DNA of 46,079 nucleotides, taken from positions 1 through 46,079 of the forward strand of contig JBGSWE010000002.1 in assembly GCA_041752595.1 (NCBI GenBank), given 5' to 3'. This document shows, piece after piece, positions 1,099 through 6,033 of this stretch. This stretch comes from Candidatus Saccharimonadales bacterium (GTDB taxonomy: Bacteria; Patescibacteriota; Saccharimonadia; Saccharimonadales; JACDBH01). Below the pieces are notes generated by a model. The model worked only from the letters and a program-made list of their open reading frames with translations, searched no databases and was not told the DNA's origin. Each line of letters begins with the position of its first letter. Position 1 is the first letter of the stretch. A program made the translations under genes and the position numbers.

Positions 1099-1320
1099 AT
1101 GAGTTACGAAGCATTCCCTGTCGATGAAACAGACGAACTATACGGAGATGTTTATGTGCTTGGTGGTCAAGGAGCTGTAGACGAAATGGTGGAATATGTA
1201 AAAGCTGGACATAGCCCACCCAGTGCAGCAGAACATGCAAAAAACACCATTCCCTTAAACGGTATCAAAATACACGATTATAGAATAAGACATATGGGTA
1301 ACCATCAAGGTGAATACTAG
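1099..1320 (+). CDS. small hypothetical protein (73 aa)
   Basis: Fills the gap between rmuC and a convergent gene, with a promoter-like element upstream; no recognisable motif. Confidence 0.55.
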   Translation: MSYEAFPVDETDELYGDVYVLGGQGAVDEMVEYVKAGHSPPSAAEHAKNTIPLNGIKIHDYRIRHMGNHQGEY

Positions 1321-1323
1321 GAG

Positions 1324-2670
1324 TTAATTCTTATTGTTAGCTAGATCAATTGCTAGTGCAGCCGTCCAAGCAAAATCAGCAGCGCCCAAACCCTTGCCAT
1401 CAATTGCAGAAAAATATTCATACGGTCCAGATTTGTCGACCATTGTTAGGGTTCGCTCTGTAAGCTCGCTAGCTTCTTCGTGGAAGCCGTAGCGTTTTAG
1501 GCCGTCAATAATTAACCAGTTTGTGTTTACCCAAGCCGGGCCTTGCCAATACCTGTTGGCGTCAAAAAAAGTTGAGTCTAGTGGTACCGAAGGTACGGGA
1601 TGGTGAAGCCAGAATTTACGGTGGTCTTTTAGTAATTTAACTAGTTCCTCGGCCCGTTGTTTAGTAATTGTGCCAGCGTAAAGCGGCATAAAAGTTCCAA
1701 TGCTGGGCTCTAGTATTAACTTATGAGTTATAAAATCGCGTGAGTAATATTGACCGGTTGGTTGATCGTATAATTTTTCTAATGCTTCTTCTGAATGTTT
1801 AAAGTTAGTAACCAAGTCCTCAGGTAATTTACGCCTCAAAAAATCCGCAATAGCCACGAGTTGAGAGTTATTTCTAACCATAATACTGTTAAATGTAATA
1901 TCTTGGGTGCAAAAGTCAGAACGGTGCAATATTTTATCAATATCATACTTCTTTCGCCTAAGCCTGCGTACGACATCCCAAAGCAGTAACGCTTCTAGGC
2001 TACTGATACGCTGACCGGGATTTACTTTGCGGGTATCGCGTCTAAGCCAGTTAATAATTTTTTGCAGGTGCATTGTTTCTATTAGTGCTATCCACCATGG
2101 ACGCGAATGTTCGTATAGTTGTCTAACCCAGGGCGGAGTATTATCTAAGCCAACTTCATACGGGTGTATTTGCAAAGTAAGTCCTTCGTTGTGTGGATCG
2201 CGTTCGGCATACATCCAGGTGTGATAACTAACCAGTGGTTCATACATAAATCGATAAAATTCACGCTTGAGTTCGGTTGGAAGTTTTTCTCCAACTTTTA
2301 TAACCGCATCTGCAATCATTGGTGGTTGAGTAACGCCACTAGTTGCAACTGTATCTGGAGCATATGGACTAAGCCAGCTTCGCCATGCGTCACGTTCCCA
2401 CCTGTAGGCACGCCCAGAATTAAATATCATATTAGGGATCATACCGTTTGCCCATTGACCCCTTACTAGATTGGCAATTTCTGTAGCGGCGCGGTTCGGA
2501 TCTAGGTGTCTTAATCCAATTGCTATAAAAGCACTATCCCATAGCCACTGGTGGGGATAAAGTACTGCGGGTGAAGTATGTGTTCCGTTATCGTTTGCCT
2601 TTAATACTTCGGCCATTCGTTCAGTAAACTCAACGGGTGAGTCAGCTGGTTCTGTAGGGATAGTTTCCAT
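1324..2670 (-). CDS. GH63-like (alpha/alpha)6 glycoside hydrolase, mannosyl/glucosylglycerate hydrolase type
   Basis: YPHQWLWDSAF, GVTQPP, EVGLDNTP and YWQGPAWVNTNW motifs; start moved to ATG 2670, 8 nt after TATACT. Confidence 0.8.
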   Translation of the reverse strand: METIPTEPADSPVEFTERMAEVLKANDNGTHTSPAVLYPHQWLWDSAFIAIGLRHLDPNRAATEIANLVRGQWANGMIPNMIFNSGRAYRWERDAWRSWLSPYAPDTVATSGVTQPPMIADAVIKVGEKLPTELKREFYRFMYEPLVSYHTWMYAERDPHNEGLTLQIHPYEVGLDNTPPWVRQLYEHSRPWWIALIETMHLQKIINWLRRDTRKVNPGQRISSLEALLLWDVVRRLRRKKYDIDKILHRSDFCTQDITFNSIMVRNNSQLVAIADFLRRKLPEDLVTNFKHSEEALEKLYDQPTGQYYSRDFITHKLILEPSIGTFMPLYAGTITKQRAEELVKLLKDHRKFWLHHPVPSVPLDSTFFDANRYWQGPAWVNTNWLIIDGLKRYGFHEEASELTERTLTMVDKSGPYEYFSAIDGKGLGAADFAWTAALAIDLANNKN

Positions 2671-2704
2671 TAAGCTTAAGTATAGCGATGTTCTGCTCAG
2701 AAAC

Positions 2705-2726
2705 AAAAAAGCCCCTCAAATAGGGG
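2705..2726 (-). terminator. intrinsic terminator of the minus-strand cassette
   Basis: Minus strand reads CCCCT-atttg-AGGGG followed by cTTTTTTgTTT. Confidence 0.55.
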
Positions 2727-2761
2727 ATAATACAAAAAGTTGTTGAGTACGGTGAGTTTAG

Positions 2762-2828
2762 GAGTGATAGCCAGAGTGGCTGGGGGTAGGGCGATAGCCT
2801 TAATTCCAGCCACTCTAGCATAACACTT
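2762..2828. repeat. long hairpin in the cassette 3' UTR
   Basis: AGAGTGGCTGG (2773-2783) / CCAGCCACTCT (2806-2816) is a perfect 11-bp stem, extendable inward and outward. Confidence 0.85.
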
Positions 2829-2829
2829 A

Positions 2830-3798
2830 CTAGCAGCCTTGAATGTTCGGCCAGTTTACAGCAATACAGATTTGCTTTCGTTGTATTTCGTTCAACACGT
2901 CTTGTCCGTTAACCATGTCTGTTGCTTCACCAATTGGAGGAATAGTAGCCGTTGGTTGTTGTGTGAGTTCAGGGAAGTAAGTCACGAAGCAATCGACGAT
3001 GCCCTGGTTGATGAGAGCTTTGTCTTCGTAAGGTCTCAGCATTCCAAGACTAACTGCATCAAACCGTTCTTGTGGTGTTCCATGGCTCCCCCCCAGGGGC
3101 TCGCCGATATCAATTGCAGTTTGTAGGATTGCTTCGACATCTTTTATCTCGAAGACTCTTTCTACTCCGGCAATTGCAACTCCTCCCAAGCAATCTGCAT
3201 TGTTTTCTACAGAAACACTTGGTAATAGCTGCATCACCTCCGCCCCAAATATTTCGTACTGGATGTTATGGCCCCATTCGTGAGCGAGGAGAAAGAAAAC
3301 TCCAGCTTCTCCGGCAGGGTTGATTTGGATGCTACCACTTTGGATCGTAATGACATCACCATTGACCAGATCAGTGGTAAGTCCGGTGGGAACAGAAATG
3401 ACATCTGTTAGAGTGCAATATGCTGGGCCAACGCTATTACTAGCCGTATCTACAAGATCACCGCATGCAATTGCTTCGGTGCCTGTAAGGAACTCGGTAT
3501 CAACAACCTCTGACGCAAATGGTACACCGTGAAAGACGTACTGATCGCTCCAAAATCGTTGAATTTCGTCAACCATGGGCTGGTATACCTGAAGCTCAAC
3601 TATTAAGTCATCAGCAGTATCGCAGATGATTCCACAGTTTGATGGAATTGGTGATGGAGTAGCAGGGTCTTCGGGGAAAAGAATGATATCACCCTCACTT
3701 CCGGTTTCGCCTGTATCACCACCTGTGTCATCATCTGAGCCACAAGCCGTCAGTGCAAGGGCAATAGTAGCTGCGATGGCCAATTTTTTGAAACGCAT
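2830..3798 (-). CDS. lipoprotein, neutral zinc metallopeptidase (YpfJ/Zn_peptidase-like)
   Basis: Signal peptide with LTA-C lipobox; GPAYC, AHEWGHNIQ (HExxH), ENNADCLGG and SHGTPQER motifs. Confidence 0.85.
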   Translation of the reverse strand: MRFKKLAIAATIALALTACGSDDDTGGDTGETGSEGDIILFPEDPATPSPIPSNCGIICDTADDLIVELQVYQPMVDEIQRFWSDQYVFHGVPFASEVVDTEFLTGTEAIACGDLVDTASNSVGPAYCTLTDVISVPTGLTTDLVNGDVITIQSGSIQINPAGEAGVFFLLAHEWGHNIQYEIFGAEVMQLLPSVSVENNADCLGGVAIAGVERVFEIKDVEAILQTAIDIGEPLGGSHGTPQERFDAVSLGMLRPYEDKALINQGIVDCFVTYFPELTQQPTATIPPIGEATDMVNGQDVLNEIQRKQICIAVNWPNIQGC

Positions 3799-3923
3799 TA
3801 GTCAACCTTCTTTCGCTTTTCTCGGATGATTGTTACTGCGGTCGCAGTCACAATAATAACTAACAAACCGAAAACTCCCCATGCTCCTAAGAGCAAGATT
3901 ATTGGTGCAGGTCCTTGGTTCAC
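3798..3923 (-). CDS. 41-aa single-TM peptide (not in ORF track)
   Basis: GTG start after TAGGA; MNQGPAPIILLLGAWGVFGLLVIIVTATAVTIIREKRKKVD; TAATG overlap with the peptidase start. Confidence 0.75.
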   Translation of the reverse strand: MNQGPAPIILLLGAWGVFGLLVIIVTATAVTIIREKRKKVD

Positions 3924-4190
3924 TAACTGGTCCTACTCTTTGTTCCGGTTTTCCCACCATTTGATCAAAGCCCCAACAGCAAGAACGCTGCCAAAGGCGA
4001 TGAAAATGATAAAGGGCATCGGCAGGTTAGTTCCCGCTACGTCAATTTGTCCATTGCAATCTTGATCAAATTGTCCGCAATCAAGCTCGAAGTCGTCTAC
4101 TGAATTCTGGGGCAAAACTTCTTCGCCCAAATAAAAGAGTTGGTATGTTGAGGTCACTATCTGCTCCTACTTCTTGTTCCGGTTTTCCCA
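3921..4190. repeat. two 36-bp direct repeats (3921-3956, 4155-4190)
   Basis: 32/36 identical; the minus strand of each encodes WENRNK[K/E]-stop, an SD and the next GTG start. Confidence 0.9.
3933..4157 (-). CDS. 74-aa peptide: acidic N-terminus with Cys pair, C-terminal TM, WENRNKE tail
   Basis: AGGAG SD 6 nt before GTG; TM followed by a charged tail. Confidence 0.75.
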   Translation of the reverse strand: MTSTYQLFYLGEEVLPQNSVDDFELDCGQFDQDCNGQIDVAGTNLPMPFIIFIAFGSVLAVGALIKWWENRNKE

Positions 4191-4256
4191 GGACTTGTAT
4201 GCTTGATAGGCGACAATCATGATGATTGCTGCAGCACCCAAAGGCAAAACTTCCAT
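4167..4256 (-). CDS. 29-aa single-TM peptide (not in ORF track)
   Basis: AAGGAGAG SD, then MEVLPLGAAAIIMIVAYQAYKSWENRNKK-stop. Confidence 0.7.
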   Translation of the reverse strand: MEVLPLGAAAIIMIVAYQAYKSWENRNKK

Positions 4257-4284
4257 GTTTATTCTCTCCTTGTTAAGGCAAGCA

Positions 4285-4328
4285 TCCACTAAAAATAGTA
4301 GAAAAAATGAAGGAACTATTCCTTCATT
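4285..4328 (-). promoter_or_regulatory. structured 5' leader (two hairpins)
   Basis: 10-bp stem AATGAAGGAA/TTCCTTCATT (4306-4328) followed by a U run on the minus strand; 7-bp stem 4285-4302 with a minus-strand G-U pair. Could also terminate yajQ. Confidence 0.6.
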
Positions 4329-4359
4329 AACCTGCGGGCACTCACCGTACTTGATACAA

Positions 4360-4388
4360 ACTATAAACTAAAAATTAATATATGACAA
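4360..4388 (-). promoter_or_regulatory. sigma70-type promoter for the cassette
   Basis: Minus strand TTGTCA (4388-4383), 17 bp, TATAGT (4365-4360); predicted TSS ~4353. Confidence 0.7.
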
Positions 4389-4396
4389 ATAAAAAC

Positions 4397-4891
4397 CTAA
4401 CGGAAGTTTGTAAAATTAATCGGGAAGTCGAAATCTTGTTCACGTAGCAGTTGCATAACGTCTTGCAAATCATTTTTGCTAGCACTAGTTACGCGCACTT
4501 CGTCGCCCTGGATTTGTGGTTTAACTTTGGGGTAGGTTTCACGTATTTTGGCGGTGATTTTTTTGGCTTTTTCTTGATCGAGGCCCTTTTTGAACGGCAC
4601 TTCCTGTGTAGTTTTGAGGTTACTGGTGATGGGTTCTTTGGTTGTGTCTAATAATTTTTGTGATTGGCCGCGGGTAGCGAGTTTTTTGCGAACAATATCA
4701 AGTATTGCCTCAATCTGCCAATCACCATTTCCAGTGATTTTAAAACCAGTTTTATCATCCATCCACTCGATTGCTGCCGGAGTGCCCTTAAAATCATAAC
4801 GGCTATCGAGCTCACGCAGGGTTTGATCATAAACGTTATTAAGCTCAGCCTTGTCGTAGTCGCTCACAATATCAAAACTAAAATTTGCCAT
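4397..4891 (-). CDS. yajQ: YajQ family nucleotide/c-di-GMP-binding protein
   Basis: SFDIVS, RYDFKG, QIQGDEVRVT..KNDLQ and F.NFR motifs; likely start MANFSF. Confidence 0.92.
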   Translation of the reverse strand: MANFSFDIVSDYDKAELNNVYDQTLRELDSRYDFKGTPAAIEWMDDKTGFKITGNGDWQIEAILDIVRKKLATRGQSQKLLDTTKEPITSNLKTTQEVPFKKGLDQEKAKKITAKIRETYPKVKPQIQGDEVRVTSASKNDLQDVMQLLREQDFDFPINFTNFR

Positions 4892-5007
4892 ACCACAAGT
4901 TTCGCACCACATGAGTCCGTTGTCCAGCGGAGCTGGCACTTTCTCATGTTCCTGACACCCAGCAAATTTTTTATCAAAGCCCCGCCAAGGTGTTATAATT
5001 TGGTTAA

Positions 5008-6033
5008 ATGAATTACCAAAATCAAGATATTGCCCGTATTGCTGATGAGCTTAAGCTAAAACTTGCTGATTTGACTGATAAGAAGTCAATTCTTCGCGAT
5101 CCAGCGCTAAAGAGCTTGTTTGATCAGCTTAAAACACTGCCACCAGAAGAACGTGGACCGTTTGGTAAAGAGGTTAATCTACTAAGAATTGAGCTAACTG
5201 AAATAGTTGAATCAGCAGCTAGTACCGAAATACTAGCGCCAATAGATATAACAGCACCTTGGGACATAAATACTCCTACGGACAAGTTGCCTAAACTCCT
5301 GCCCACAGAGCAAGGTAGTTTGCACCCGCTCACTCAAGAGATAGCTGTAATTACTGACATTTATGAAAGAATGGGATTTGTGGTAGAGGAATCTCGAGAG
5401 ATTGACGACGATTATCATATGTTTAGCAGTCTAAATTTTCCAGCTGATCACCCAGCCAGAGATGACTATGACACCTTTATGACAGACGAAGGTTTGGTTG
5501 CACCTGCCCATACAAGCACAATGCAAAATCGAGTGCTACAAAAATACCGAGAAAATTTAGAAAACGGCGAACCAATCGCGGTTGTAATCCCAGGTCGAGT
5601 CTTCCGAAATGAAGACGTAGATGTTACTCACGAACACACCTTTTATCAAATTGAAGGAGTCTATGTAAACAAGGGAGTTAATGTTGGCAACCTGGTTGCA
5701 GTGCTCAAGGCCTATATGAGCGAATTCTTTGGACAGGAACTAAATGTAAAGATTCAGCCATTTTACTTTCCGTTTACTGAGCCGTCATTTGAGTTTGCAG
5801 TAGAGCGCCCTGAGATACTACGCAAAAATGATTCAGAAGAGCAAAAATGGCTCGAGCTAGGCGGCTGCGGCATGATACACCCAAACGTATTAAAAGAAGC
5901 CGGCATCGACCCAATAGAATACGCTGGTTTTGCTTGGGGCTTTGGCGTTGAGCGTATGGTGATGATGAAAAACGCCATAGAAGATATCAGGCATTTTGAA
6001 AGTGCAAATTTAAAGTTCTTGAGGCAATTCTAG
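5008..6033 (+). CDS. pheS: phenylalanine--tRNA ligase alpha subunit
   Basis: GSLHP, HPARD, HTS, FYQIEG, YFPFTEPS, GFAWGFGVER. Confidence 0.97.
   Translation: MNYQNQDIARIADELKLKLADLTDKKSILRDPALKSLFDQLKTLPPEERGPFGKEVNLLRIELTEIVESAASTEILAPIDITAPWDINTPTDKLPKLLPTEQGSLHPLTQEIAVITDIYERMGFVVEESREIDDDYHMFSSLNFPADHPARDDYDTFMTDEGLVAPAHTSTMQNRVLQKYRENLENGEPIAVVIPGRVFRNEDVDVTHEHTFYQIEGVYVNKGVNVGNLVAVLKAYMSEFFGQELNVKIQPFYFPFTEPSFEFAVERPEILRKNDSEEQKWLELGGCGMIHPNVLKEAGIDPIEYAGFAWGFGVERMVMMKNAIEDIRHFESANLKFLRQF

Follow-up and report, generated by a model that had tools for sequence, protein, structure and literature searches.

CydX, KdpF, AcrZ and MgtS are small (<50-80 aa), single-pass, operon-encoded accessory subunits or regulators, and the peptide toxins of the ldr, ibs and hok type are separate transcription units, each of which has its own antisense RNA. 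Here we describe a locus that invites comparison with both groups, and with the holin-endolysin cassettes of phages. It lies in a 46,079-nucleotide stretch of DNA from a Candidatus Saccharimonadales bacterium (NCBI GenBank assembly GCA_041752595.1, contig JBGSWE010000002.1, positions 1 to 46,079 of the forward strand; hereafter the window), and it consists of three consecutive mini-genes, ORF1, ORF2 and ORF3, followed on the same strand by the gene of a putative lipoprotein zinc metallopeptidase. The observation from which the work started, namely a repeated stop-to-start junction that joins the mini-genes to one another, is confirmed and lies beyond chance. The link between the mini-genes and the peptidase gene is physical, and it is not conserved in the family loci that we examined.

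Compared with CydX, KdpF, AcrZ and MgtS, the mini-ORFs are alike in their size, their single transmembrane (TM) helix, their short charged tail and their presumed co-transcription and coupling with a larger partner gene, but they form three tandem paralogues without homologues, and their putative partner is a lipoprotein peptidase outside the membrane. Phage holin-endolysin cassettes likewise have small TM genes with charged C-termini that overlap the start of an exported hydrolase. Here, however, there is no phage context and no PHROGs match, and the enzyme is a YpfJ-like lipoprotein and not a member of a known muralytic family. Type I toxin arrays (ldr, ibs, hok-type) share with the locus short hydrophobic peptides with polar tails that are multiplied by local duplication, whereas the ORFs described here appear to lie in the same operon as an enzyme gene and to be coupled to it in translation, and no Rfam element was found. 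The literature that we searched on YpfJ and on small membrane-protein operons describes no such layout. For the enzyme, the closest described system is the YpfJ/KPN_02809 family (PF04228, NF050010), of which one member, KPN_02809, was shown to have zinc protease activity (PMC3269727).

A sequence-only reading of the window had described three mini-genes of 29, 74 and 41 aa on the minus strand, each with a single TM segment and a charged tail, and had noted that ORF3 overlaps the peptidase start. Both descriptions agree with the open reading frames, their hydropathy and the nucleotide sequence, in which the overlap reads TAATG and the peptidase ATG begins with the last A of the ORF3 TAA. The elements on which the argument depends are as follows.

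4256..4167, minus strand: ORF1, ATG start, 29 aa, one predicted TM helix, tail KSWENRNKK, TAG stop
4157..3933, minus strand: ORF2, GTG start, 74 aa, one predicted TM helix, tail KWWENRNKE, TAG stop
3923..3798, minus strand: ORF3, GTG start, 41 aa, one long predicted TM stretch, tail REKRKKVD, TAA stop
3798..2830, minus strand: peptidase gene, putative lipoprotein zinc metallopeptidase, 322 aa
4154..4197, minus strand: junction repeat copy 1, comprising tail codons, TAG, GGAG, a 6-nt spacer and GTG
3920..3963, minus strand: junction repeat copy 2, comprising tail codons, TAG, GGAC, a spacer and GTG
3807..3824, minus strand: third copy of the tail module, diverged, R-E-K-R-K-K against W-E-N-R-N-K, 13/18 in register
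4264..4271, minus strand: Shine-Dalgarno (SD) element of ORF1, AAGGAGAG, 9 nt upstream of the ATG, read from the sequence
4041..4067, minus strand: ORF2 loop DQDCNGQID (residues 31-39), a DxDxNGxID pattern beside Cys27 and Cys34
2688..4396, minus strand: insertion holding the whole cassette, between a yajQ-like (DUF520) gene and an MGH1-like glycoside hydrolase gene

An alternative form of ORF1, 40 aa in length, would begin at GTG 4289.

The two junctions, 4190-4155 and 3956-3921, are identical at 32 of 36 positions, as had been noted, and a repeat search lengthens the match to 44 nt at 84% identity (37/44), with the copies 234 nt apart. When the region 3798-4290 was subjected to mononucleotide shuffling, none of 500 shuffles reached 37/44, and the best gave 30. 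The window contains two occurrences of the 17-mer encoding WENRNK, where 0.12 would be expected, and the WENRNK peptide tail, searched for genome-wide, is unique to this locus in the 889-kb genome. A weak echo of the repeat had also been suspected at the end of ORF3, and it is real: the ORF3 tail CGAGAAAAGCGAAAGAAG (3824-3807) is identical to the first tail at 13 of 18 positions in the same register, a degree of matching (at least 13/18) that is found at 78 of 1,778,450 genome positions, or a background of 4.4e-5 per position. Thus, there are three copies of a module made of a helix and an x-E-x-R-x-K tail, of which the third has diverged. A further echo that had been seen before ORF1 (AACAAGGAG) is merely the SD element of ORF1.

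Both of the well-kept tails use identical synonymous codons, including CGG, which is the rarest arginine codon of the genome (1.64 per 1000). This indicates duplication by descent rather than convergence. Given that the repeat spans stop, SD and start and that CGG is common to both copies, tandem duplication, which the sequence-only reading had named as the mundane alternative, is the best-supported origin of the array. We conclude, on strong evidence, that the three mini-genes of the locus are paralogues, the product of successive tandem duplications of a unit made of tail codons, TAG, SD element and GTG. This is the sole tandem array of mini-ORFs with a TM segment and a basic tail within the genome. 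An unrelated ORF of 68 aa elsewhere in the same genome (contig C1:15527-15733, minus strand), which lies outside any array, encodes a TM helix near its C-terminus, followed by the tail KRRKKRRRY.

The hydropathy of the three peptides strongly indicates that the mini-genes encode small single-pass membrane proteins. Each has one hydrophobic stretch, with 17-residue Kyte-Doolittle maxima of 1.98 for ORF1, 2.72 for ORF2 and 2.82 for ORF3, and all of the Lys and Arg residues of the three mini-ORFs (12/12) lie C-terminal of that stretch. Because of this distribution, and by the positive-inside rule, which is established knowledge, we infer that each mini-protein would be oriented with its N-terminus outside and its C-terminus inside the cell (N-out/C-in). 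The ~45-residue N-terminal part of ORF2, which is acidic and contains 9 Asp/Glu, no Lys/Arg and 2 Cys, would therefore face the cell surface as an ectodomain. When ORF2 was modelled by itself with AlphaFold2 (AF2), residues 47-72 formed a confident helix and the N-terminal part was unstructured, with nothing confident in it. Within this part, the segment DQDCNGQID resembles, by motif only, a calcium-binding loop of the EF-hand or DxDxDG type; Pfam returned no hit for it. No meaningful family was found for any of the three peptides in Pfam, NCBIfam, PHROGs or PADLOC, and the ESM Atlas held no usable match to ORF2.

The peptidase is a divergent zincin of the YpfJ/PF04228 superfamily. It contains the zinc motif HEWGH, and in an alignment of 13 sequences, 3 of which carry PF04228, the pattern AHEWGH...E..ADC..G...HG..R (E198, A201-D202-C203, G206) is invariant, so that it shares with the YpfJ/KPN_02809 family both HExxH and the downstream E..ADC. 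An hhalign comparison with the canonical 280-aa YpfJ of a relative from the same family (G018) gave a probability of 99.1%, with E 1.6e-18 over 164 columns, and all 30 of the 30 ESM Atlas hits are PF04228 clusters. The AF2 model (mean pLDDT 72, with residues 60-280 mostly >80) places M13 enzymes at the top in VIA-align, with Z of 9.5-10.3, followed by M1, M48 and M4, so the modelled fold appears to be that of a zincin. Foldseek returned nothing for the model at E <= 0.001, and no solved structures related to the peptidase by sequence were found. Against the curated profiles, the protein scores 21.3 bits for PF04228 (18.3 bits in a six-frame search), below the Pfam gathering threshold of 23.2 bits, and 31.1 bits for the NCBIfam YpfJ equivalog NF050010, for which the cut-off is 250; it is thus not an equivalog of KPN_02809.

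The peptidase also differs from the canonical enzymes in how it would be attached to the cell. Canonical relatives have an N-terminal cytoplasmic segment that starts MA.WDK...GNV.DRR, followed by a TM stretch as an anchor. The window peptidase lacks this and instead has an N-terminus, MRFKKLAIAATIALALTAC, of lipoprotein-signal type (MRFKK-LAIAATIALA-LTAC, by motif only), with a lipobox ending in Cys. Its only close relative among 5.8 billion protein clusters is the cluster P0002 (6 members, 332 aa), with which it shares 60% (BLASTP) to 65% (MAFFT) identity. In a phylogenetic tree, the peptidase groups with P0002 and seven lipoprotein homologues from high-GC organisms with support of 100/98; neither the canonical copies of its phylum, which have a TM anchor, nor the second PF04228 gene of its own genome falls within this group. 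Lipoboxes are present in at least six of the seven homologues of this high-GC clade, among the loci listed, which cover six of eight. Because the branching inside the clade is not resolved, no direction of transfer can be given. A C-terminal extension of ~45 aa (residues ~280-322, window ~2830-2960), in which two Cys are invariant, is present in the window peptidase (P0001) and P0002 and in no other members; it is absent from all of the high-GC homologues and is modelled with low AF2 confidence. Upstream mini-ORFs, finally, accompany no other family member examined.

The second PF04228 peptidase of the genome (contig C3:73720-74166; locus L055, ORF 1252..1983) is a protein of 243 aa with a lipoprotein-type signal and a very long branch, and its gene is followed by another lipoprotein gene. 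No small TM ORFs were found upstream of the peptidase at L055.

The mini-genes and the peptidase gene occupy one insertion of ~1.7 kb that contains only these four cassette genes. In the five relatives examined, one from the same genus (G001) and four from the same family (G002, G006, G008 and G010), the yajQ and glycosidase genes are adjacent or separated by a short spacer (5/5). When the window is compared with G001 by blastn, homology ends at 4401 and restarts at 2687, and G001 holds no remnant of the insert. Thus, the ~1.7 kb was most parsimoniously gained in this lineage; repeated loss elsewhere would be the less parsimonious account. The GC content of the insertion is 45-48%, against ~40% in the flanks. 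Neither flanking direct repeats nor mobile-element genes were found around the insertion, and the neighbourhood is made up of housekeeping genes and is not a prophage. The physical link between the mini-ORFs and the peptidase gene that the sequence-only reading had pointed to therefore holds, in the form of one insertion, stop-SD-start junctions and the TAATG overlap. In G001, yajQ is split over two contig ends (the end of C21 and the start of C3; L028 and L029), with a TAG inside the match of one copy, which is probably an assembly break at the locus.

We asked how widely the peptidase and the peptides are distributed. Among 41 relatives, the peptidase is present in the source genome itself (G000) and nowhere else (1/41). 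Searches with P0002 as the query likewise returned only this genome from the 401 genomes of the order, and, from the 20 genomes of the family, this genome plus one weak row from G018. Three other genomes among 401 of the phylum gave matches to the peptidase, all of them weak. Genome contigs held relatives of at most 38% identity, plus matches to the signal peptide only, and metagenome contigs held relatives of at most 41% identity. A plasmid search for the locus gave one weak match, to Nonomuraea.

For the peptides, no homologue was found among proteins of 40-130 aa or 30-82 aa, or by six-frame searches of the 401 order genomes (best other E 0.008) and of the 401 phylum genomes. Small ORFs are under-called in protein databases, which the six-frame searches offset in part. 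The order set includes one genome flagged as unpublished (G653), on which no result depends. The best hit of the phylum search (G124, E 5e-4) lies inside a GatB gene and was rejected as noise. A fusion of the mini-ORFs, compared with 1.84 billion representatives, has no homologue of any length; the sole hit other than itself, P0014 (E 1.9e-5), was rejected as the translation of an unrelated tandem (satellite) DNA repeat. Contigs of four metagenome runs cover the locus, and they are identical, without joints, indels or length variants. The four runs come from one hot-spring study, and two of the four are possibly the source of the window DNA. Because contigs drop rare variants, what these data establish is the absence of an assembled alternative form.

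Taken together, the locus is by its sequence a lineage-private set of orphan genes for predicted small membrane proteins. The explanation that we favor, to which we assign a probability of about 0.45, is that the ~1.7-kb lineage-private insertion is a four-cistron operon in which duplicated N-out/C-in mini-proteins are coupled to a peptidase and act as its membrane partners. Ribosomes that end at each TAG would restart 9 nt further on, and would do so again at the TAATG overlap, so that the three peptides and the lipoprotein peptidase would be made together. An SD-like element is present 6-9 nt upstream of the start of each of the three mini-ORFs, and in this genome SD-like tetramers stand before 128 of 408 long ORFs as compared with 37 of 408 control positions. 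The peptidase would be anchored on the outside of the membrane that contains the peptides, and the peptides would be not a self-contained expandable cassette but partners of the enzyme, which might serve it as a tether, a regulator or a docking site. A partner role in any of these forms is speculative. The two-Cys ectodomain of ORF2 might, for instance, dock to the peptidase through the two-Cys C-terminal extension of the enzyme. A complex prediction with the ectodomain (residues 1-52) and the peptidase (residues 55-322) gave a score of 0.00 and was run with no controls, and it speaks neither for nor against binding.

Several results weigh against this explanation. The peptides are orphans in all of the searches described above, which is also why purifying selection cannot be shown. 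At 11 other peptidase-family loci, no small TM-like ORF has its end in the 520 nt before the peptidase gene, whereas the same script finds three in the window; with the second copy of this genome included, mini-ORFs are found upstream of 0 of 12 other PF04228-family loci, a comparison that leaves out the P0002 cluster. Within the loci examined, therefore, the family shows no conserved pairing of peptides with the peptidase. The codon usage of the mini-ORFs, scored as log-odds trained on 421 long ORFs, is positive in frame (+0.16 for ORF1, +0.23 for ORF2 and +0.28 for ORF3), negative in both other frames and ~0 for opposite-strand ORFs. Spurious small ORFs have a mean score of -0.045 (sd 0.225) and chunks of real genes one of 0.44, so the mini-ORFs lie in between, and 7-19% of spurious small ORFs score as high as the individual mini-ORFs; as a sign that the mini-ORFs are genes, the codon signal is suggestive only. 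No RNA run is among the four runs that hold the locus. Since the two junctions are copies of each other, the good geometry of SD and start in them can be counted only once. The partner role, moreover, has as its evidence solely the co-insertion of the genes and their coupling.

The same results can be read as evolutionary debris, in which the mini-ORFs are by-products of leader duplications in a recently acquired peptidase gene and are either untranslated or translated without function. That the peptides are orphans, that all 12 other family loci lack them, that their codon scores are intermediate and that the locus is known from a single species, in the runs of one study, all fit this account. 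It explains less well why the frame stays open over 189 codons with only two stops, why the codon signal is positive in frame and negative off-frame for all three ORFs, and why none of the ORFs has lost its start codon, its SD-like element or its TM helix and basic tail. The third copy, in particular, has diverged in its DNA and yet retains the x-E-x-R-x-K tail and its membrane character. We regard debris as rather unlikely on this balance. A different departure from separate functional cistrons is a single gene for a ~150-aa membrane protein with three helices, in which the two TAG codons are either read through or are the nonsense codons of a pseudogene. ORF1 to ORF3 do share one reading frame, which the sequence-only reading had not remarked on, and are separated by nothing more than TAG and three codons. 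A public gene call (P0006, on a 909-nt contig in the cluster of ORF2) presents the mini-ORFs as a 152-aa fusion in which TAG is read as Gln; the gene caller probably adopted an alternative code for this short contig, and the resulting artefact could mislead users of the databases. Of the 436 open frames in this genome that are 250 or more codons long, however, 124 end in TAG, and the 40 tRNAs found include none with the anticodon CUA; a normal stop with no suppressor tRNA argues for separate cistrons and not for a read-through gene. TAG is also part of the duplicated unit, so it is older than the duplication and does not represent two independent lesions. Furthermore, the second helix of a fusion would place its basic tail outside, unlike in each separate peptide, and the fusion lacks homologues, as described above. 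A single gene is accordingly hard to credit.

Two further accounts give the peptides another relation to the enzyme. In a lysis or attack cassette, the peptides would be holin-like proteins or membrane toxins and the peptidase a released or co-acting effector, and the layout, in which small TM proteins with charged tails overlap a secreted hydrolase, does bring holin-lysin cassettes to mind. We consider this very unlikely: no single peptide belongs to a PHROGs family or gave a PADLOC hit, neither 50,697 phage records nor viral contigs contain a match to the peptidase, the surroundings are of a housekeeping type without a prophage, a lipid-anchored peptidase with its own signal needs no holin, and ORF1 and ORF3, with 29 and 41 aa, fall short of the size expected of a holin. 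The least probable of the accounts is that the peptidase has the peptides as its dedicated substrates, or processes them as tags resembling sorting signals. A TM helix followed by a basic tail does resemble C-terminal sorting signals, LP-x-[GP] stands right before the helix in ORF1 and ORF2, and there are sub-threshold NCBIfam hits of CTERM type (E 0.07-0.15). Against these stand pre-helix segments that read LPLGA, LPMPF and GPAPI in the three peptides, with no LPXTG or other defined motif, the lack of an N-terminal signal peptide in all three, NCBIfam scores that are all far under the cut-offs, and homologous peptidases without such neighbors.

Membrane partnership with the peptidase thus remains the explanation that we prefer, and a bolder version of it can be considered. 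In this version the array would multiply itself, with repeated junction duplication minting single-pass peptides that dock to, or regulate, a peptidase of foreign type at the surface of an ultra-small bacterium; the clade-specific Cys extension of the enzyme would receive the acidic, calcium-loop-like ectodomain of ORF2, and the P0002 lineage would carry an array of a different size. We hold this to be distinctly improbable. The related proposal of the sequence-only reading, a modular cassette that expands by recombination, finds no support, given the lack of copy-number variants in the four runs, of peptide homologues and of mini-ORFs at the 12 other loci.

If the peptides are real, the locus would be a clean and datable case of the birth of small membrane-protein genes, in which a single step, the duplication of a stop, a ribosome-binding site and a start, is enough to create a cistron. 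The locus would then also open a first way into the function of the YpfJ-type peptidases, which are poorly understood, in a bacterium with a reduced genome, and the surface proteases of such bacteria may matter for living on other cells. As things stand, it is a curiosity of a single lineage, unless the P0002 lineage carries a related array.

Additional elements lie at the two ends of the insertion, as follows.

4360..4388, minus strand: candidate promoter TTGTCA-17-TATAGT, sigma-70-like, between the yajQ stop and ORF1
4306..4328, minus strand: terminator-like hairpin, a 10-bp stem and then TTTTTC, between the yajQ stop and ORF1 and downstream of the candidate promoter
2770..2819, minus strand: imperfect 23-nt inverted repeat directly 3' of the peptidase stop, 78% complementary, with a 4-nt loop
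2712..2726, minus strand: terminator-like hairpin and T-run that closes the cassette ahead of the glycosidase gene

The promoter is a candidate only, because the regional count of such sites is not above that in shuffles. Rfam gave no match in 2600-5100, and folding of the leader together with the array gave z = -2.09 and no defined element. The hairpin at 4306-4328 may be the terminator of yajQ or an attenuator-like leader of the cassette. At its other end, the cassette apparently has two 3' hairpins (2770-2819 and 2712-2726).

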